Shown here piece by piece: positions 26,529-50,195 of a DNA stretch of 64,000 bases. Source of the stretch: a phage; sequence record NC_101835.1. One strand, written 5' to 3'. A program made the position numbers and the translations under genes. Position 1 is the stretch's first letter; each line of letters opens with the position of its first letter. The notes below the pieces were generated by a model. That model had not been told where the DNA came from and did not search any database. It was given only the letters and a program-made list of their open reading frames with translations.

Positions 26529-26556
26529 AAAAATGCCCCACCCTTTCGGGCAGGGC
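26529..26556 (-). terminator. rho-independent terminator
   Basis: Minus strand hairpin GCCCTGCCCGAAAGGGTGGGGC then TTTTT; identical copy at 38270-38296. Confidence 0.6.
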
Positions 26557-26571
26557 TATGTCAGTTAGGTG

Positions 26572-27150
26572 CTAAAAGTATTCATAGAGGTATCCATCGG
26601 GAGCTGGAATTTTTTCATGAATGTAGTAACCAACATATATTCCGGTTTCTCTGCTGCAAGAGTTGTGGGATACCCATTCTTTAAGAACGTTGCCATTCAT
26701 GTCCAACCTCCTTACATTTTTGCACCGTCTACCGCTGGTGCTTCTATGTAACAGAATATCCTCTGTCTGCTTGTCTTTATTTTCTCCCCAAGTCGTTAAA
26801 CGGATATTATCAAAAGAGTATCCTTTGAAATCGTCTATCCTGTCACAAGAAGGCTTTTTCCTTTTGTCGTATCCGCTGGCTACCCATTGGTCATACAACT
26901 CTTTGTAACCGTTTAGGTATAGCCACTCTTTAAACTCTTTTTTGGTGTAAGTCGGAGGAGGGTGACCTCTTTGCTTGCTGTTGCACTTTTGAGTCTTGTA
27001 CAACACACGTATTACACCTTTTTCTGAAGAGTCTTTAGCAAATTGGTCAGCCTCCCTGCTGGCCTTCTTACAGCACTCTTTGCACGTTGATTTGTTGCTG
27101 GTGTAGAAGTCGGAGGCCTCCTTGTCCTCCCCACAACGTTTGCATTTCAT
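26572..27150 (-). CDS. zinc-ribbon + HNH-like (DRID variant) endonuclease-like protein
   Basis: N-terminal CKRC..CKEC; C-terminal CDRIDDFKGYSFDNIRLTTWGENKDK resembles HNH_3 motif with R replacing the first His. Confidence 0.45.
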   Translation of the reverse strand: MKCKRCGEDKEASDFYTSNKSTCKECCKKASREADQFAKDSSEKGVIRVLYKTQKCNSKQRGHPPPTYTKKEFKEWLYLNGYKELYDQWVASGYDKRKKPSCDRIDDFKGYSFDNIRLTTWGENKDKQTEDILLHRSTSGRRCKNVRRLDMNGNVLKEWVSHNSCSRETGIYVGYYIHEKIPAPDGYLYEYF

Positions 27151-27158
27151 AACTGACC

Positions 27159-28385
27159 TCAGAAAGGGATCGAGTCATCAAAGGCGTACTGTGCTGGATT
27201 CTGATCCATCGGGTCATCTTCCTCATCATTTACAGGAGGAGCGTCTACAGTGTTTTGCTGTGGAGCTGCTTCCTGTTTGGCAGCCTGAGGTTCTTGATGG
27301 TCAGTTGACCCAGCACCGTTCTTGATCCAATCGTACAACGGCTCAGCCAGATTAGTCAAGACATCTTTTGCTTCTGCAGTAATTGCCACTGCAAAATCAT
27401 CAACTTTCGTTTTCTTGTCAATACGGCGACAAGCGTTCAACACCGCATTACCGACACTGGCACCTACTTCATCTTCAGTTCGGTTGGTGGCTTGAGCATA
27501 CTCTTTCTTAAGCTCAATAGTGACTACGTGTAGTGTTTTAGCCACTCCTAATGGGTCGTCTACCTTAAACCCGCGATCCAGGATGATCTGCAACGCATTG
27601 ATGCTATGCCCCGTTTCCACACCGATAGGGTCGTAAGAGGATTTACGCTTGCCACCGGAGCCTTGAGTGCCGTTCTCTGCCTTAGGAGGATAGGCCTTGA
27701 AACCACTGATAATGTTTCCAGTGTCTTTGTCAACAATGGCTGCAACACGACCACCTACCACCAGGTCTTTAAGCTGCTCATCAGTGACAACCATAGCACC
27801 TTCGCCAATCTTGTGGTCATTAACAGTAACCACGTTGCCAACAATCTGAGTCACATCACCATAGATGCGTAAAACGTCCTGATTGGCATTCTGCTGAGGT
27901 TTCTGCTTCTGGCCTTGTGATTGTGCACCTTGTTGCTGTTTTTGCTGCTGAGTCGCTGCTGGAGCCTCTCCTGCACCCAGCTTGACCATCTTAGCCAGTG
28001 AGCCTTTGTAATAGGTCTTACCGTTATGCTCGTTTGCCTTCAAAGGGATATTTACGATCCATCCTGGCGTTACGGTTTCCCACTTGTCATCAATTTTAAC
28101 AGAGACAGAGTCTTGATGACCCGGTTTAAGCAACTTATCGCCCATACTGATCCAAACTTCTTCACCACCTTGAAGCAGGTTATCAGAGGAATCCAGTTCA
28201 GAAATCAGTAAAGAGATGGTGTGGCTGGATTCAATTTTCTTACCTTGCCACACAGTGGTTTTAATACCTGTTGTAGGATCAGCACCTTTGATAGGCTTGA
28301 TGCTGACACGTTTAATCATGCCGTGAGCCAGTAAAACAGTTTCACGCGGATTCATCGGGTTAGCGAATTGTTGAATAACGCTCAT
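27159..28385 (-). CDS. putative ssDNA-binding protein with SSB-type acidic C-terminal tail
   Basis: C-terminus ..DDPMDQNPAQYAFDDSIPF resembles E. coli SSB tail DDDIPF; Q-rich linker; sits in the replication block. Confidence 0.5.
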   Translation of the reverse strand: MSVIQQFANPMNPRETVLLAHGMIKRVSIKPIKGADPTTGIKTTVWQGKKIESSHTISLLISELDSSDNLLQGGEEVWISMGDKLLKPGHQDSVSVKIDDKWETVTPGWIVNIPLKANEHNGKTYYKGSLAKMVKLGAGEAPAATQQQKQQQGAQSQGQKQKPQQNANQDVLRIYGDVTQIVGNVVTVNDHKIGEGAMVVTDEQLKDLVVGGRVAAIVDKDTGNIISGFKAYPPKAENGTQGSGGKRKSSYDPIGVETGHSINALQIILDRGFKVDDPLGVAKTLHVVTIELKKEYAQATNRTEDEVGASVGNAVLNACRRIDKKTKVDDFAVAITAEAKDVLTNLAEPLYDWIKNGAGSTDHQEPQAAKQEAAPQQNTVDAPPVNDEEDDPMDQNPAQYAFDDSIPF

Positions 28386-31929: not shown

Positions 31930-32205
31930 CAATAGTTCAGGTAGGTCGTTAAGCTACCCCGCACCATTACGTGCATAGCCATACGTTTTCACGTAGGATC
32001 GGACCATCTCATATTCCTATGATAAGCAACCACAGGAATCCTCCCATTTCGACCGCACTTGCTGGTCTACTTCCTTTCGGAATGGCCTCTGAGCGTTCGC
32101 TCTTTTGAGCGCTTCGTTGCGGATTACCTTGCCATAAGGTTTAGGCTTCCCGCAGTTAAAGAGGTTATTCGACATAGATTACTCTATGAAGCCACAATGT
32201 TATTT
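31930..32205 (-). other. putative group I self-splicing intron in DNA polymerase gene
   Basis: 276 nt between ..YYH and DE..; 5-prime exon ends in U, intron ends in G; GUGG near intron start can pair with exon CCAU; P-like AACUGCGGGAAGCC and Q-like AAUCCGCAACG; GAAA-capped hairpins. Confidence 0.5.
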
Positions 32206-34629
32206 ATGGTAATAAATAATACGACGAACACCTTCATCGTACCACCCACGCTTCACCATTTGGTGGTGCATAAGTATCCCAACCAAGTCACACAGCGATG
32301 CACCACCATTCTGTTGATATGCATTAAGTAAAGAGTGTTTAGATCGGGTCCAGATGGCATGACCATCAAAAGAGTAGATAAACTTCTTACCCGTTGCTTC
32401 CCAGAATTTCTCCAGATCCTCTTTACGGCCCTTAAGACCAGGGTTGGCATCCCAAAGCGCATCGATTACCCTTTGTCCCAACTCTGGAGAGATGTCCAGC
32501 ATATCTGCAACTTTATCTTTTTGTGCCCCGTACATAACCCCATACGTGATAGGTTTACCGTCGTTACGGGACACCTCTCTACCTGCTACTTTTGTATATG
32601 CCTCAGCATTGTTTTGGTGTGCGTCCCCGTTACTTACAACATCGTAATACAGGCCGTTGTCGAACTCAAAGGCACCCCAAGCCCCGATAAGCTGCTCTAA
32701 GTTGGACCCGTCAATACCGATCTCAAAGTATCCCGGAGGAACACCCCACAGACTACGCATCTCTTTACCCATAACCACTTTAGGAGATGGTTTAGGCATG
32801 TTTGCACAAATACTGTGTTTCTGTCTGGAAGTGTTTGTTAATCCAGAGCTTTTAGCAGGAAGCTTATGGTCAATCTTCAAACGTGGGTGATTAAGAAGAC
32901 CAGTGTCAACCTTATCCTCCTTGATTGGATCAAGTACCGATCTGCGGTTTCGCAATGATAACCATAAGACGATATCTTTAGCCATCTCTCCGTTCAATTT
33001 TTCAAGATTCGGACACAGGTGTCCAAACGTATCTTTCAGTTGCGGAGAAGTAATAAGTGCCCTAGCTTTTCTACGTATTTTCCCGAATACTTCCTTTTTA
33101 ATCCTTTCGGAGTTAGGAAAGCTTCGGAACTTGTGCACTGTTGTCTGAAACTTAGCATCAGTTTTGTTCCAGAAGTTGATAATTAGGTCACAATACTCTG
33201 ACTCTAAAAGCTCGTCCATGTATGCATATACTCGTGCATCAACATCTGCATCAGGTAGAGCTTTCTTCTTGCTGTCTTTAGTTACATCCTTAGTTCTCCA
33301 CATTGTCGGAAGCCAACCAGCACTGATCAGGTATCGCTTAATGTCGTCCTGATTGCTGATTTTCATAGGTATCTTGCAGTCAGGCATTCGCTTCTGCTGC
33401 AGATCGCTTATTGCCTGATCCATCAGCTCTTTAGGCAAAGGTTGTGGTGTGGAGGTGCCCTTAATATAACCTCTCAAGAAATCAGCCATCTTGTCGGGGT
33501 CTTTGCAGCCCATCTCTTCACACCATTTTATCCCCATCTTACTGACATCTCCTGTGGAGGTAAATGCTCTCTTAGGCGGGGCTTTGAACTCTAGAGCGCT
33601 CATGTCTACAGGATAGCCAAGCTTATCTTTTAACCATTTCCAACCATTATTAGAGATTGTCCCGTCTTGGTTAAACGGCTTTTCAGGGAACTTGGGCCGC
33701 TGAGACATTGACAGCTCTTTTAAAGGCAGTTGTGGTTCAACACGATCAGCGATTTCTTTCATCCACGCATCGCAACGGTCACGTAAAGCAATAGCTCCAT
33801 CTATGTCGAAGTATACACCCTGACGGGCCTGCAGCTCCATCAGGAAGTGCTGCAGCATGCCTCGACGTAATGCGTTCTTCCAGGTGATCTTCTTGAACCC
33901 TTTCGGCTTCTCTTTGGCAGGATCGTACATAAAGTTCTGCATGTCAGATTTGCCGTAGAATACACCTTTTGATTCCGCTACCAGTTCTTTCCAGAGCAGC
34001 TCCTGGATGATAACGTCCTCAAATACACGATCCACATACTTCCACAACGGAAGATCGCGCCAGTCATCAATTTGAACTTTCTGGTTACCAAGGGCATAGC
34101 CCCATGCCATAAGGCCGTGGGGACCAACAGGCTGCATTTTCTTAGTAACCGGGTTGAATACAGCGTCCGGACAACCTTTTGGTAAAGGGCGATCAGGCCA
34201 CAAGATTCGGCTCATCGCCAACGTATCAAACAGGTTAACCTGGTGGTCGTTGATAGTCCCCATGCATTTAGGATCACGGAACATATCAAAATGAATACCG
34301 GATAATCTTTCCATCAGCATAAAGTCATAACTGTAGCAGTTATGGCAGTTCAAAGCTGTTGGTGACCAGTCGGAATTGCCTGTAAGCCAACCTTCCAACT
34401 CCGAAAAATCTGCTATGCGAACTTCAAAACCTTTATAAAGAGTTTTCTTTGCCAGAATGAAGTTCTTAGCCTTTTCTATATCCTCCTCGGAGTAGTGTGT
34501 GCGGTCATTTAGAGGAAGGAACAGCATAAAACGGTTCTTATTCAGCTCTTTAAACAGGCCGCAGTGATAATAAAGATCTGGATCTTCCAAAAGCCCTGAG
34601 GCCTCCAGATCGAAGCACCAATTACTCAT
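32200..34629 (-). CDS. DNA polymerase (family A, T7 gp5-like), N-terminal 808 aa / putative exon 1
   Basis: N-terminal FDLEASGL..HCG exonuclease motif like T7 gp5; motif A region IGIDGSNLEQL; motif B KPITYGVMYGAQ; ORF stops at ..RIIYYHK, i.e. at motif C. Confidence 0.85.
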   Translation of the reverse strand: MSNWCFDLEASGLLEDPDLYYHCGLFKELNKNRFMLFLPLNDRTHYSEEDIEKAKNFILAKKTLYKGFEVRIADFSELEGWLTGNSDWSPTALNCHNCYSYDFMLMERLSGIHFDMFRDPKCMGTINDHQVNLFDTLAMSRILWPDRPLPKGCPDAVFNPVTKKMQPVGPHGLMAWGYALGNQKVQIDDWRDLPLWKYVDRVFEDVIIQELLWKELVAESKGVFYGKSDMQNFMYDPAKEKPKGFKKITWKNALRRGMLQHFLMELQARQGVYFDIDGAIALRDRCDAWMKEIADRVEPQLPLKELSMSQRPKFPEKPFNQDGTISNNGWKWLKDKLGYPVDMSALEFKAPPKRAFTSTGDVSKMGIKWCEEMGCKDPDKMADFLRGYIKGTSTPQPLPKELMDQAISDLQQKRMPDCKIPMKISNQDDIKRYLISAGWLPTMWRTKDVTKDSKKKALPDADVDARVYAYMDELLESEYCDLIINFWNKTDAKFQTTVHKFRSFPNSERIKKEVFGKIRRKARALITSPQLKDTFGHLCPNLEKLNGEMAKDIVLWLSLRNRRSVLDPIKEDKVDTGLLNHPRLKIDHKLPAKSSGLTNTSRQKHSICANMPKPSPKVVMGKEMRSLWGVPPGYFEIGIDGSNLEQLIGAWGAFEFDNGLYYDVVSNGDAHQNNAEAYTKVAGREVSRNDGKPITYGVMYGAQKDKVADMLDISPELGQRVIDALWDANPGLKGRKEDLEKFWEATGKKFIYSFDGHAIWTRSKHSLLNAYQQNGGASLCDLVGILMHHQMVKRGWYDEGVRRIIYYHK

Positions 34630-35360
34630 ACTGTCTCCTCCTGTGTCTTCTCAGCATTCTTTCTTGCAGCTATTGCATCGTCCCTGTTCTTGAAATACCC
34701 AAGGCATTTCCTTTTACCATCTACATAAATTCTGGCTACCCATCTTTCATGGGTTTTATCCCAATTCACCCCTGAGCAACCGCTGGTGTTATTATACTGC
34801 ACGGCTCTTCCACTCTTGTGCGAAAAACCATTATCTTCGAAGAACTTTCTTGCCCACTCTGCCTCTTCAAAAGTTCTGTACTGGCCTAGCCAGACCCTTT
34901 CACCTACAGAGTCTGTGCCTTGAGCTACCCATGCCCCTCTTTCTTCAGAATAGTGCACCCCGACCCTGCCAGATTTGTTGTTGCTACGAGGTATCTTGCA
35001 ACTTTTCTTTTTGTTATCTGTAGGTTCGAGTAGTTGCAAATTTTGAATACTGTTGTCAGCCACACCACCTGTTTCCCTTATCTCCTTGATGTGGTCAACC
35101 TCATACCCTTCCGGTACAGGACCGTTAAACATTTCCCAGATTATAACGTGGGCACCTTTAGTGCAATGCTTTCCTAGACTAACCACAGGCCTGCCATCAG
35201 CATCTTGCCCCTTGTCAGCTCTGGAGCCTGCTGAAGTTTTAACATATCCTACACCGCTGCCTGCCAGAATGTCTATCTTCCAAAAAAGATTTTGACCGTC
35301 ATACTCCAATATTTCTGACCACAAGTGATTAGCTACACAGTGATCTCTGAACTCGTTCAT
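34626..35360 (-). CDS. HNH homing endonuclease with two AP2 domains
   Basis: HNH core GYEVDHIKEIRETGGVADNSIQNLQLL..N; AP2-like repeats SGRVGVHYSEERGAWVAQ and SGCSGVNWDKTHERWVARIYVDGKRKCLGYF; stop overlaps polymerase start. Confidence 0.75.
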   Translation of the reverse strand: MNEFRDHCVANHLWSEILEYDGQNLFWKIDILAGSGVGYVKTSAGSRADKGQDADGRPVVSLGKHCTKGAHVIIWEMFNGPVPEGYEVDHIKEIRETGGVADNSIQNLQLLEPTDNKKKSCKIPRSNNKSGRVGVHYSEERGAWVAQGTDSVGERVWLGQYRTFEEAEWARKFFEDNGFSHKSGRAVQYNNTSGCSGVNWDKTHERWVARIYVDGKRKCLGYFKNRDDAIAARKNAEKTQEETV

Positions 35361-35418
35361 AAAGTGTTCTCCTTAAAGGGGAGGCGGTTGTACTACCCCT
35401 CCCACTCTTTGTTAAACA

Positions 35419-37497
35419 TTAAAAAGGCGTTTCATCATCCTCAAAACCAGGGACCGGGTCAGAGGATGGATCATCGTACTGGAGGTCTTCCTGCGTGTCA
35501 ACAGGCTTAACAGTAGGAGTTACAACCTTATCAGCCACAACCTTGCCCATAGGTGTTTCTACAACTGCATGCTCCTGATCCTCAAACATAGCCTGAGGTC
35601 TCCAAACAACCTCCCCACCTTCTCCGTCTGTAAACATTTGCATTTCTTTGTCCCAGTACCAATTACTGGCATCATGGAACTTACCTGTATGTGGGTCCAT
35701 AACTAAAGTGTCAGCAATACCTAAAGTTTTTGCTGGACGGTTTTTAAGACCTACCAGACGGACACGCCCACGAGAACGATCCACCATTTCTTCGGCCTCG
35801 ACACCTATGACTACCCAACTCAACTGTTCAAGCCCAGCCGATCCTCGCAAATTCTCTTTTCGCACAGGATACCAGAAAGGTAATGGGTTACCATCCTTGT
35901 CCTTAGGGGGCACAATCTCTGTACGTTTGAGGTGAGCGATCACCAAGATAAACACGTTAAACTGCTTACAAAACGCAGCCAGCTGAGTCATAGCCATGTC
36001 CAGTTCTTTTCGCTCATCTTTAACATTAAGCCCTGAAATTACCATAGACAGGTGATCCAGCACAATATAGCGACAATGGTACAGGCAGACCATTTGCTTA
36101 AGCTTGGTAATCAACTCGTCCACTGGAATAGACCCGAAATGTTTGAACACTTTGATTTTTCCAGCTTTTGCCCATGATTGGTGAATCTCTGCATGTTCTT
36201 GATCAGTTAAAAACTGGCTAGGATCTTCAACAAACTCTTTAACATCAAACCCTAACTGGTTTGCATACAAGGAGTTAATTGCTTCCTCTGGGTCCTCCTC
36301 AAGATGAATCATGCATAGACGATCATCCTCTTCGTAGTCATCGGCCTTTGGACATGTCGGGTCCATTAGGTATCTTGCAATACAGTGTTCCAGTTTTTTG
36401 GCTACAGTTGTTTTACCACCTCCTGATGGACCTGTAAGCATTACGAGTGTCCCTTTGTGCAAGCCTTTTAGCATTTTTTGCAGTTTTGGAAACTCTGCGC
36501 TGATATCTACCCCGTTGGAAGTCTTTTTCCGCAAAGATTCGATAGAGAAGTCTTCTAAATCCGACACAGCATCAGGCACATACTTAACAGGATGCCGGAA
36601 CATGTTTACAATATCTTCCAGCTTTTTAGCCTTCAGCATGTCACGGATATCTTTTACACCATCAGGGTCGTTTACCTCGCCAGGATATTCCACGTGGTAA
36701 ACGTTGTCAGCCATCAAAAATGCTGCAATATTATGTGTGGCTTCAACACCTTTGATAACGTGTTTTTGCTTCTCTACCTCGTTAGCCGCATCGTTGTCCA
36801 TTGCAAGGACCACTGTTCCGTAGCTACGGATAAATTTCTCATTGTTTGCAAAAGTATCTACTGCGTTTGCACATCCACAGTTAATTCCAACAAAAGGTAG
36901 GCAGGGTTTTCCTGCCAGATCACCCCCGTTGATAACTGCATCGATCCCGTCCTGGACCTCTTTAGCCCACTGTTTCACCTTTGCCGGGGCTTTAGCGTTG
37001 GTGAGAATCCCTTTTACTTGTATCTGATATGCAGCCTGCCATGCTGCAATAACATCACCTTCCCCCTCACAAACGTTAATCTGCTTACGGTTGTTAGAAG
37101 ATGCACACAGCTTTTGCCCAAACATTTGGGAGTTAGCCTTTACGATCCCAACCGTCGTAAAGTGCCCACGTTGCTCTTTGGGGATCGTCCAGTCACGCTT
37201 TTTGAAACCGGACAGATTCCCGTAGCGGTCGTAATATGGGAAATATGTTGCAGTAACTGTCACACCGTCTTCTTGGGACAATGCTGATCGCACACCAAAA
37301 TATTGTGCAGCCATCAGACCGATATTTTGTTGTGGGACAGGGACGATTTTAGTATTTTCTAAAACAGTCTCTACAGTTTCAACTTCTTTTTCATCACGAT
37401 AGTCTCGTTTCACACTTCCCCCACTTTTATACTTAGTTGCTTTCGGGTTTGGCTCACCGAAACGGTTGTATGCAGATGCCATAAATTTACTTCCCAT
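35419..37497 (-). CDS. bifunctional DNA primase-helicase (T7 gp4-like)
   Basis: TOPRIM residues CEGEGD and VLAMDNDAANE; Walker A LTGPSGGGKTT; Walker B YIVLDHL; acidic C-terminal tail ..FEDDETPF. Confidence 0.85.
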   Translation of the reverse strand: MGSKFMASAYNRFGEPNPKATKYKSGGSVKRDYRDEKEVETVETVLENTKIVPVPQQNIGLMAAQYFGVRSALSQEDGVTVTATYFPYYDRYGNLSGFKKRDWTIPKEQRGHFTTVGIVKANSQMFGQKLCASSNNRKQINVCEGEGDVIAAWQAAYQIQVKGILTNAKAPAKVKQWAKEVQDGIDAVINGGDLAGKPCLPFVGINCGCANAVDTFANNEKFIRSYGTVVLAMDNDAANEVEKQKHVIKGVEATHNIAAFLMADNVYHVEYPGEVNDPDGVKDIRDMLKAKKLEDIVNMFRHPVKYVPDAVSDLEDFSIESLRKKTSNGVDISAEFPKLQKMLKGLHKGTLVMLTGPSGGGKTTVAKKLEHCIARYLMDPTCPKADDYEEDDRLCMIHLEEDPEEAINSLYANQLGFDVKEFVEDPSQFLTDQEHAEIHQSWAKAGKIKVFKHFGSIPVDELITKLKQMVCLYHCRYIVLDHLSMVISGLNVKDERKELDMAMTQLAAFCKQFNVFILVIAHLKRTEIVPPKDKDGNPLPFWYPVRKENLRGSAGLEQLSWVVIGVEAEEMVDRSRGRVRLVGLKNRPAKTLGIADTLVMDPHTGKFHDASNWYWDKEMQMFTDGEGGEVVWRPQAMFEDQEHAVVETPMGKVVADKVVTPTVKPVDTQEDLQYDDPSSDPVPGFEDDETPF

Positions 37498-45397: not shown

Positions 45398-46582
45398 TTA
45401 AGCTTTAGCCAAAATGGCGCTAAACTCTTCACCAAACTCTTTTACAATCTTCATCAGGTTTGGGTATGCTTTGATCAGCTGAGCAACAATCTTGTCACGA
45501 CCTTTACCGATAAGCAAGGCATTTCCTAAGGCATTAGGTTTCATCATCGCCATAAAGACTGAGAATACAAAATCTCGGTTCTCGTCCTTGAAGTTTTCCC
45601 AAAGGAAATCGAGGAAGTTTGCCACACAGCTAACAAGATCTTCGTCGGAGATACTTGCATTTTCCATCATATTACGAATAGCGATACAACCTTCAGATCC
45701 AAGAATCCACAAGATGTCTGGCTGTTTAGGGCCTACGTATTCTTTGCAACCTCCTGCCATAATCCGACCTATTTCCGGTAAGTTGCGTTTCTTGGTGTGG
45801 TAAGTCCAGATCTCTACCGCTGCAGTGTGACCAATAGCACCTTGTAGAAGAACACGGGCCATAGCGTCAGAAATAATACCGCTGTCAAAATCGTGCAAGA
45901 TATCAGATGCAGCAACCCAAGATCGCGGTGTGGCAAAAGATGGACAATTAATCTCAGCCATGGCCTCATAATTATCAATAGCTGATGGAACTCTTTTCAG
46001 ATATCCAATTACAGAGGAGTGCACCCCATTAAGGAATGCGTAGTCCTCAATAAACACCTCTGCGTTGCTTGTAACTTCTACAATGATAAAGCGGTTAGCC
46101 AGAGGGGCTTCGAGCGCCGAAAGAACAGCACCATCTGTAGAACGGTTACCTGCAGCTACAAAAACAGAGCCCTTAGGGAATGCATAGGTGCCACACTTGT
46201 GGTCGAGCATAATCTGCATTGCAACCTTTTGCAGGTAGTTATCTGCATGAGTGAGCTCATCCAGAAAGACAATTCCGCTCCAGTCAGGATCCGCAGGCCA
46301 AAATTCTGGGATTGCAAACACTGTACGTGTAGTCCCATCCGCTTCTACAGGGATAGGTAGCCCAGATAAGTCGGCAGGATCTTTATCTGACAGCCGCACG
46401 TCAACCAGGTTGTCATCTCTCTCACCGAACATATTATCAGCGATCTGCTTCATCACCTGACTCTTTCCCACACCCATTGGTCCTAAAATCAGGACAGATC
46501 GGTTATGACGCTGGGCAAACTGAATGATAGCTGGCAACTCACGGACAGTGATTTGACCACTTTCAAATACGTTTCTTGACAT
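45398..46582 (-). CDS. AAA+ ATPase (MoxR/CobS-like, AAA_5-type)
   Basis: Walker A LILGPMGVGKSQV; Walker B IVFLDELTHA. Confidence 0.7.
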   Translation of the reverse strand: MSRNVFESGQITVRELPAIIQFAQRHNRSVLILGPMGVGKSQVMKQIADNMFGERDDNLVDVRLSDKDPADLSGLPIPVEADGTTRTVFAIPEFWPADPDWSGIVFLDELTHADNYLQKVAMQIMLDHKCGTYAFPKGSVFVAAGNRSTDGAVLSALEAPLANRFIIVEVTSNAEVFIEDYAFLNGVHSSVIGYLKRVPSAIDNYEAMAEINCPSFATPRSWVAASDILHDFDSGIISDAMARVLLQGAIGHTAAVEIWTYHTKKRNLPEIGRIMAGGCKEYVGPKQPDILWILGSEGCIAIRNMMENASISDEDLVSCVANFLDFLWENFKDENRDFVFSVFMAMMKPNALGNALLIGKGRDKIVAQLIKAYPNLMKIVKEFGEEFSAILAKA

Positions 46583-49144: not shown

Positions 49145-49157
49145 CACGTTTTTGATG

Positions 49158-49186
49158 TTGACATCTGTTGAGACAATTGATAAGAT
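49158..49186 (+). promoter_or_regulatory. sigma70-like promoter (TTGACA-N17-TAAGAT), rightward
   Basis: TTGACA 49158-49163, TAAGAT 49181-49186; back-to-back with the leftward promoter. Confidence 0.5.
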
Positions 49187-49217: not shown

Positions 49218-50195
49218 ATGAATCTTGAAAAATATTATACACCAGAAGAGTTAGAGCGCCTGCTCAAAAAATATAGACGCAAACAGAATAATGCACGGAA
49301 ACGAGATATAGAGTTCGACCTGTCGTGGGAAGAATACCTACTATTTGGTAAAAAACTTTTAGGGGAAGGGGTATGCGACTACACCCTTATACCTTTCGAC
49401 ATGCACACAGATGAAAACGGACTGGGAAATCCTTTCTATCCATCTCTGGAGCGGATAGATGATGAAGGTCCTTACGCAATTGATAATTGTTGTGTGGTAG
49501 GGTTGAGGTGCAACGCTCTGAAGGACTGTCTGGTAGATAAAAAGACTGCAATATTGATAAAAGACAAAACTGATCGAAAAATTGTCCAGCAGATGATGCT
49601 CCACCTGAGCGAAGAGCGTATGGAGAAATTGAAAGGTGATTATACTTTCGAAGATTTCATCTTGCAATACGGGACAGAAGAAGATAAACTAGCACTTTTT
49701 GACGAAGAGGAAGAAGATATGTCACCAATGCAGGACTTTAAAAATTTCATGGCTGATCGTGCAGCCAACAAACACATTTCAGATATCGTAAACGAAACTG
49801 TGACAGAAGAAATTGAAGAACAGAACTCTGAAGAGGAAAAAGAGCCTCAGGAGGTCGAAGAGGAGATTGCAGAAGAGGTTCCTGCACTGCCTGATGATGT
49901 TGAGGTTGCTAAGGCTTACACTTTCTATTGTCAAACGTTCTACGATGCAGGTATGAAAGTTGATCTGTCGTTCAGCCAATTTAAGAGTTCATATATTCGC
50001 AAATGCTGTGCTTTAACTGGTGAACGTCTCGGAGCTGGACTTAAACCGCTGTTGGTGACCGACTGGAATAAAGGTTTCACTAAAGGAAACTTTATGGTAG
50101 TATCTCCAATTATGGAAAAAGCCATGACAGATCTTATGAAGACCACTCGCATGACAATGACTGAGTTGGCAGGTATTTTCAAACACGTTAAATAA
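49218..50195 (+). CDS. hypothetical protein with HNH-like DRID-type segment and acidic linker
   Basis: ATG after GAGAGA, downstream of promoter (track start 49152 would overlap it); PSLERIDDEGPYAIDNCCVVGLRCNALK; E-rich linker. Confidence 0.45.
   Translation: MNLEKYYTPEELERLLKKYRRKQNNARKRDIEFDLSWEEYLLFGKKLLGEGVCDYTLIPFDMHTDENGLGNPFYPSLERIDDEGPYAIDNCCVVGLRCNALKDCLVDKKTAILIKDKTDRKIVQQMMLHLSEERMEKLKGDYTFEDFILQYGTEEDKLALFDEEEEDMSPMQDFKNFMADRAANKHISDIVNETVTEEIEEQNSEEEKEPQEVEEEIAEEVPALPDDVEVAKAYTFYCQTFYDAGMKVDLSFSQFKSSYIRKCCALTGERLGAGLKPLLVTDWNKGFTKGNFMVVSPIMEKAMTDLMKTTRMTMTELAGIFKHVK

Follow-up and report, generated by a model that had tools for sequence, protein, structure and literature searches.

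Predicted PacI-type His-Me finger domains in two genes of a Vequintavirus: a candidate free-standing homing endonuclease and an Srd-like core protein

What does it mean when an HNH-like motif carries arginine in place of its first histidine at two separate loci of one phage? The question is raised by sequence record NC_101835.1, in which we analysed a stretch of 64,000 nucleotides (the window), and by two of its genes, here called P1 (gene 1) and P2 (gene 2). The source of the window is an rV5-like coliphage (genus Vequintavirus), and about 116 phage records in GenBank match the two regions at 93-100% identity. An original prediction, made from the sequence alone, had taken both genes for degenerate HNH_3-like endonuclease genes, possibly inactivated homing-endonuclease relics or DNA-binding proteins recruited to a new role. 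Our analysis points instead to two proteins with a PacI-type site, of which P1 would be a homing-type nuclease and P2 a fixed, Srd-homologous protein acting in host takeover; we give this explanation as a whole a probability of about 0.72.

26572-27150, minus strand: P1, an open reading frame (ORF) of 192 residues; PacI-type His-Me finger protein, candidate free-standing homing endonuclease.
49218-50195, plus strand: P2, an ORF of 325 residues counted from its ATG; Srd-like core protein, homologue of rV5 gp11.

The observation behind the question stands. P1 contains the exact string CDRIDDFKGYSFDNIRLTTWGEN, preceded, as predicted, by a ribbon of the form CxxC..CxxC (C3xxC6…C23xxC26), and P2 contains LERIDDEGPYAIDNCCVV; the motif extends from D103 to N124 in P1 (window 26779-26844) and from E78 to N99 in P2 (window 49449-49514). 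Both follow the pattern [D/E]-R-I-D…Y…N…N, in which Arg takes the catalytic-His position of HNH enzymes (the D-H pair that closes strand beta-1). Since both ORFs and their strings were found, and a six-frame regular-expression search of the window for [DE]R[ILVFM][DNS]…[YF]…N…N returned only these two sites, each inside a long ORF, the reported motif and its coordinates are correct. The spacing from Asp-Arg to Asn is 20 residues in P1 (D103-R104…N124), the same as in PacI (D92-R93…N113), whereas it is 21 residues in I-HmuI (D74-H75…N96).

Sequence profiles link both proteins to PacI. A P1-family profile, built from 55 relatives with identities down to 33%, matched PacI (3LDY/3M7K) at E 2e-3 through the zinc ribbon and the segment VDRSDSFEGYSPQNARLACFICN, and the C-terminal half of I-HmuI (1U3E) at E 5e-4. 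For P2, a profile of 11 close homologues gave only chance-level matches to PDB sequences, and it took a diverse profile to bring out the link to PacI. The P2 N-terminal domain served as query in an exhaustive HMMER search (E ≤ 1e-3), which yielded at least 2,748 cluster representatives (50% identity clusters), and a superfamily profile of 42 sequences taken from these had PacI as its sole significant PDB match (E 6.7e-7, PacI residues 32-120), a match that was kept at 28.8 bits and E 1e-5 after P1, P2 and T4 Srd had been removed. PacI, which alone among solved relatives was significant by sequence profile, was also the top fold relative of both P1 and P2 in fold searches.

The two genes are also connected to each other. 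Their family profiles align with E 1.8e-5 and 78% probability (hhalign), and in the PHROG database P1 matches phrog_1035 ('endonuclease VII') at 6e-33, while P2 matches phrog_3118 ('HNH endonuclease') at 9e-111, with cross-matches to phrog_1035 and the two Srd-type families (phrog_1400, Srd, at 3e-9). T4 Srd in turn matches phrog_3118 at 1.5e-16 and phrog_1035 at 9e-8, and the P2 N-terminal domain aligns with residues 4-113 of T4 Srd (NP_049634) in BLASTP at E 5e-7 and 24% identity. Together, the PHROG cross-matches, the BLASTP match and the hhalign match indicate one domain common to P1, P2 and T4 Srd. As judged from these profiles, P1 and P2 are both members of the HNH/His-Me finger superfamily in its PacI-type variant, which the classification of His-Me fingers (PMC5714182) lists as 'group 20', and both have the beta-beta-alpha-metal fold of that group in their predicted structures. 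The domain also occurs in tandem: 35 of the sampled family proteins hold two to four copies, and in the exhaustive search P0168 (852 residues) and P0258 (541 residues) were each seen to have four PacI-type stretches.

If the histidine is missing, is the site degenerate? PacI is described, in the part of PMC5714182 that deals with it, as an HNH enzyme without the catalytic His, whose role is filled by a Tyr in the inter-strand loop, and the structural passage of PMC4081073 gives its single metal ion one Asp and one Asn side chain as ligands. The catalytic positions of PacI are D92, R93, Y100 and N113; with N104 added, they align with D103, R104, Y111, N124 and N115 of P1, respectively. His is likewise absent and a loop Tyr present in P1 (R104 and Y111) and in P2 (R79 and Y86). 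Predicted metal ligands are D103 and N124 in P1, and N99 and E78 (for the Asp) in P2. In such a site, the acidic residue before the Arg and the helix Asn would hold one divalent metal ion, the Tyr in the loop between the two strands would substitute for the missing His, and the Arg would be a fixed component.

Conservation of these positions is strict. Among the 55 P1 relatives, R104, Y111 and N124 are each present in 55, and D103 in 54; P100 and S101 are invariant as well. E78, R79, Y86, N90, N99 and K102 are invariant among P2 homologues. Across 192 domain instances sampled from the exhaustive search, the Tyr is found in all 192, the first Asn in 191 and the second Asn in 184 of 186. The acidic position is D in 105 and E in 83 domains, and the Arg position is R in 183, K in 7 and Q in 2, and never His. 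C53 is the only Cys kept family-wide (184/192; the other eight domains have 7 gaps and 1 Ile). The conservation of Arg, Tyr and Asn, with the whole PacI catalytic set kept, indicates that the Arg is the fixed state of a large family rather than a recent loss of His, and the description of the motif as degenerate is not borne out. The sole truly degenerate copy that we found is the C-terminal domain of P2, which the original prediction did not mention.

At its N terminus P1 has a zinc ribbon; a helical module, the PacI-type core and an I-HmuI/NUMOD-like tail follow in this order:

27073-27144, minus strand: N-terminal CxxC…CxxC zinc ribbon (C3, C6, C23, C26), from the sequence and its alignment with relatives.
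26878-27024, minus strand: helical module, residues 43-91, from the predicted model and profile alignments.
26749-26853, minus strand: beta-beta-alpha-metal core, residues 100-134, with D103, R104, Y111, N115 and N124.
26575-26724, minus strand: predicted I-HmuI/NUMOD-like DNA-binding module at the C terminus, residues 143-192.

The ribbon cysteines are kept in 48-52 of the 55 relatives, and the ribbon aligns weakly with residues 2-42 of PacI, which hold its first Cys4 site. The P1 model has helices at residues 43-60, 70-79 and 82-91, followed by the core with strands at 100-104 and 116-120 and a helix at 121-134. By hhalign, and by comparison of the superfamily profile with PacI residues 32-120, the helical module is common to P1, P2, T4 Srd and PacI (residues 32-60). 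In the tail, NUMOD-type Pfam models stayed below thresholds for P1 itself; among its 55 relatives, 18 have PF22083 and 11 have NUMOD1. A nuclease domain joined to a DNA-binding module, the composition of a homing endonuclease, is indicated by these Pfam matches and by the I-HmuI profile match.

Is P1 mobile? Alignment with Vequintaviruses whose site is empty delimits a cassette around it, set between a conserved upstream gene and a hairpin:

26575-27161, minus strand: presence/absence cassette of 587 base pairs (bp).
27159-28385, minus strand: upstream gene of 408 residues, phrog_4477, conserved, with function unassigned in PHROG.
26535-26556, minus strand: hairpin resembling an intrinsic terminator just downstream of P1, with a 9-bp stem and a T-run.

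The locus measures 1914 bp when empty and 2501 bp here, a difference of exactly 587 bp. The insertion point is exactly the stop codon of the 408-residue gene, and the cassette brings P1 together with a new stop codon, TGA, which shares bases with a GAGG Shine-Dalgarno sequence (TGAGG) seven bases ahead of the start codon of P1. Its far end lies immediately in front of the hairpin, which is conserved in 11 of 11 aligned loci and lies directly 3' of the 408-residue gene in empty-site phages. The P1 gene is carried by 51 phage records, 19 with the 192-residue type seen here and 32 with a 207-residue type that has a different N-terminus, and an uninterrupted empty junction was found in 65 of 115 records; the presence/absence polymorphism that had been proposed as a check is thus found for P1. 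Six P1 alleles are intact, with a ratio of nonsynonymous to synonymous divergence (dN/dS) of 0.02-0.09 at dS 0.14-0.27. Relatives of P1 are scattered patchily over phage groups that are unrelated to one another, namely Vibrio, Acinetobacter, Pseudoalteromonas and Pseudomonas phages and N4-like coliphages.

The flanks of the cassette carry a further signal. In all of the 11 loci compared, the 408-residue gene ends in codons that track the cassette, reading DDSIPF with the 192-residue type and DDDIPF at empty sites; polymorphism in the left flank does not track cassette presence, and the right flank alone does. The 3' end of the 408-residue gene is the likely homing target, since its terminal codons differ between occupied and empty sites, and these codon changes are of the kind that target-site protection or co-conversion would leave. 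The 408-residue protein itself has a Gln-rich, low-complexity centre and is named 'putative single-stranded DNA-binding protein' in one record (JLBYU08); a Pfam search with it found nothing. As for the 207-residue allele (rV5, L005 773-1396 and 1368-2639; L012; L013), its N-terminus is longer and different, and its start overlaps the upstream gene, which gains 15 codons (423 instead of 408 residues). From these differences in the N-terminus and in the upstream extension, the same site holds two cassette variants.

The clean cassette, the covariation of its flank, the low dN/dS, the patchy spread and the domain architecture lead us to read P1 as an active, free-standing homing endonuclease. We consider this activity probable, and we hold the assignment of its fold with higher confidence. 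P1 would cleave or nick, with one metal ion and the Tyr, near the 3' end of the 408-residue gene in cassette-free genomes; in a mixed infection, the cut relative would be repaired by copying the cassette in, and the altered codons beside the insertion would shield a cassette-carrying genome from its own P1. Both the cleavage activity and the homing target are inferred in this scheme.

P2 behaves differently in its distribution. The presence/absence polymorphism proposed for both loci does not extend to P2, which was found in 117 of 117 related records, with wider relatives at 22-41% identity in Klebsiella, Salmonella, Cronobacter, Erwinia and Aeromonas phages; this distribution indicates a fixed gene rather than a mobile one. 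Its features are:

49158-49186, plus strand: sigma-70-like promoter (TTGACA, 17 nucleotides, TAAGAT, extended TG), by consensus match only.
49263-49541, plus strand: N-terminal PacI-type domain, residues 16-108, with the intact motif at 49449-49514.
49707-49889, plus strand: acidic, probably disordered linker, residues 164-224, rich in Glu and Asp and with a predicted local distance difference test score (pLDDT) below 50.
49950-50147, plus strand: degenerate C-terminal copy of the domain, residues 245-310, from the superfamily profile, BLASTP and the AlphaFold2 (AF2) model.

An alternative start, TTG at 49152, would add 22 codons. The promoter and a GAGAGA Shine-Dalgarno-like sequence between it and the ATG at 49218, both consensus matches only, favour this ATG as the start and early expression by the host polymerase. 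Helices lie between the N-terminal domain and the linker, whose length varies among homologues. In the C-terminal copy, S-[D/E]-R is lost, Tyr is changed to Phe and the last Asn to Glu; it scores 15.1 bits against the superfamily profile, where 2000 shuffles reached no more than 6.4, aligns with residues 30-80 of T4 Srd in BLASTP at E 1e-3 and shows the same helix-then-beta-beta-alpha topology in the AF2 model. Direct hhalign comparison of the N-terminal with the C-terminal half of P2 found nothing (probability 0.2%), so that the duplication rests on the superfamily profile with its shuffles, the BLASTP match to T4 Srd and the predicted topology.

The fold of P2 and its relationship to Srd are well supported by these alignments, with homology to the Srd family found for the N-terminal domain. 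This homology has been published: rV5 gp11 was already named a probable Srd homologue, and the postulated role of Srd as an anti-sigma decoy was repeated for it (PMC3606486). The only element that appears to be new is the intact PacI-type site in Srd-type proteins; in the literature we found no work linking Srd to HNH or PacI, only two passing mentions. That P2 had been recruited to a new role is a reasonable suggestion, given a fixed core gene homologous to Srd. We regard a role in host takeover as most likely for P2: its conserved site would bind or cut nucleic acid, the remainder of the protein would supply contacts to a partner in the cell, and the second domain copy would be catalytically dead.

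Which other explanations could account for these data? One is that both proteins are inactivated HNH relics that lost their catalytic His and either only bind DNA or have no function. Indeed, neither has His where it would normally stand, Pfam HNH models do not match them and the C-terminal copy of P2 is truly degenerate; inactive His-Me domains turned DNA binders do exist, for example SMAD MH1, as mentioned in the part of PMC5714182 on such domains. A relic would not, however, preserve precisely the catalytic residues of an active relative across at least 180 divergent domains, and Arg, Tyr and Asn are invariant or nearly so across this deep divergence, matching active PacI. The intact alleles of P1 and their low dN/dS, together with the presence/absence cassette, do not bear out the idea of an inactivated relic for this gene either, and we regard this explanation as very improbable. 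Rather improbable, too, is the proposal that P1 does not spread itself by homing and is a restriction-like or exclusion nuclease directed against host or competing-phage DNA. It draws on PacI itself being a restriction enzyme (PMC4081073, in its account of the enzyme) and on a speculation, in the section of PMC5714182 on this group, that viral PacI homologues are viral restriction enzymes, but it does not account for a clean single-site cassette whose flanking codons co-vary with its presence, or for the patchy distribution and the NUMOD-type tail typical of homing enzymes; exclusion and homing by P1 are, moreover, not mutually exclusive.

For P2, the names given in databases ('anti-sigma factor', 'decoy of host sigma70', 'anti-termination') suggest a protein that contacts RNA polymerase and uses the nuclease-like fold as a scaffold, in keeping with a fixed gene behind an early-looking promoter. 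Both the T4 record and the rV5 paper (PMC3606486), however, speak of the decoy role as 'postulated', neither P2 nor T4 Srd matched any sigma-factor family in Pfam or NCBIfam, and the only experimental role of T4 Srd cited in the relevant part of PMC13232886 is to bind RNase E and stimulate host RNA decay; since a pure scaffold would also leave the strict conservation of E/D-R-Y-N-N unexplained, we think an anti-sigma function unlikely. That experimental role opens another route, in which P2, like T4 Srd, would bind the N-terminal catalytic half of RNase E and speed host mRNA decay, its site holding RNA uncut. The reciprocal homology of P2 and Srd, the function stated for Srd and the early-looking promoter speak for it, but the similarity is confined to a domain whose clusters, at least 2,748 of them, vary in architecture, Srd and P2 have unrelated C-terminal parts, and among Vequintavirus proteins the route would apply to P2 by analogy with T4 Srd alone. 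The function of Srd is not simply transferable to P2 when the homology is confined to the shared domain, and we consider this route possible, at clearly less than even odds. A similarly tentative idea is that Srd and its relatives are working Tyr-dependent PacI-type nucleases or nucleic-acid clamps, in which case E/D-R-Y-N-N would be needed for host shut-off.

Several points weigh against the reading of two PacI-type proteins, P1 in homing and P2 in host takeover. Any cleavage by P1 or P2 is a prediction from sequence and predicted structure. The two Cys4 sites of PacI are not both found in either protein: P1 has the N-terminal ribbon only and shows aromatic residues in place of the second site (C63, C66, C109 and C112 in PacI), and P2 has no zinc ribbon. 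P2 also has Glu at the position of the PacI Asp, although Glu is the state in 83 of the 192 family domains. The alignment of the P1 and P2 families reaches a probability of just 78%, the homology of P2 to Srd is limited to the shared domain at 24% identity, and the link between flank and cassette rests on 11 related genomes. Finally, in a lactococcal exclusion assay, the one PacI-like enzyme is not one of the two to which a passage of PMC12724721 on the assay ascribes lower plaque numbers.

Do curated libraries recognise these domains? Pfam HNH models, including HNH_3 and Endonuclease_7, did not match P1 or P2 at E ≤ 10, nor did any other Pfam family match them in a meaningful way, and Pfam HNH families matched none of the 55 P1 relatives at E ≤ 0.01. 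Ten sampled superfamily members had no Pfam domain over the PacI-type region, the only hit being a sub-threshold Stc1 match elsewhere in one protein. In NCBIfam, P2 had one sub-threshold, unrelated match (16.7 bits against a cut-off of 110) and P1 and T4 Srd had none; PADLOC gave no match for P1, P2 or T4 Srd. No curated Pfam or NCBIfam model covers the PacI-type domain, though the family spans at least 2,748 clusters. Of the description as HNH_3-like, the relationship to the HNH/His-Me superfamily holds, but neither gene belongs to HNH_3: the profile check proposed against that family came back empty.

Two family names are rejected on these grounds. Membership in HNH_3 (PF13392) fails on the unmatched model and on Arg standing for His in all relatives. 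Identity with T4 endonuclease VII (PF02945), a Holliday-junction resolvase with a D-H…N site, fails because its model was not matched; the name comes from database labels only, those of phrog_1035 and of many GenBank entries of P1, and is best regarded as a misnomer on the sequence comparisons made here. Both families belong to the same His-Me superfamily and have a similar pattern around the second strand and the Asn, but they depend on a catalytic His that P1 and P2 do not have.

Public annotation of these genes is accordingly wrong or inconsistent. Gene 1 is called 'endonuclease VII' in hundreds of phage records, and the names of gene 2 range over 'anti-sigma factor', 'anti-termination protein', 'HNH endonuclease' and 'type II restriction endonuclease'. 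The gene 3' of P2 (50208-51689, plus strand) is an 'HNH endonuclease' in RefSeq (JES2013 ORF12) and in phrog_1314, and its Pfam matches are DUF2201_N, a putative metallopeptidase with HExxH, and the VWA-like DUF2201 (8e-29 and 3e-11), so that HNH appears to be a mistaken label; close by, at 45398-46582 on the minus strand, is an AAA/MoxR-like ATPase. Sixteen GenBank records of the MG0656xx series, entered as 'Campylobacter phage' with Campylobacter jejuni as host, show, at both loci, 86-100% identity to Vequintaviruses of E. coli, which suggests mislabelled or contaminant phages. Other mobile endonuclease genes occur in Vequintaviruses besides P1: the DNA polymerase gene of phage WalterGehring (L001 9566-10501), a close relative, is annotated as a join of two parts that enclose a 'putative homing endonuclease', and the terminase gene of rV5 is reported to be in three segments with a homing endonuclease (PMC3606486). 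In the window, the polymerase ORFs lie at 32200-37497.

In well-studied coliphages, the BASEL collection included, 51 alleles are occupied and 65 empty, which makes P1 a tractable natural system for asking whether Tyr-based PacI chemistry supports homing. The classic host-takeover protein T4 Srd, for its part, carries a fully conserved PacI-type active site, and its stimulation of RNase E would, if Srd-type proteins do work as nucleases or clamps through this site, be a property of a nuclease-fold protein.

How do P1 and P2 compare with known systems? P1 is not the first of its kind, since lactococcal phages are known to carry free-standing HNH genes described as PacI-like: those of Skunavirus, as described in the part of PMC12724721 that covers them, are variably present, classed by HHpred and read as homing endonucleases. 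They are rare (2 of 268 genes), come from another host and phage group and are likened to P1 by description. I-HmuI is a phage HNH homing endonuclease as well, but it is intron-encoded and has the canonical D74-H75…N96, whereas P1 is free-standing, has D-R with the Tyr and adds a zinc ribbon and a helical module that I-HmuI lacks. T4 Srd resembles P2 in its motif, SLER.D…GY..GN…N, with E64, R65, Y72, N76 and N85; the two differ in their C-terminal parts, which in Srd form a helical, unrelated half and in P2 comprise the acidic linker and the degenerate second domain. PacI shares with both P1 and P2 a core of beta-beta-alpha-metal type, D-R for D-H, the loop Tyr, the helix Asn and the preceding helical module, and with P1 also the N-terminal CxxC…CxxC ribbon.

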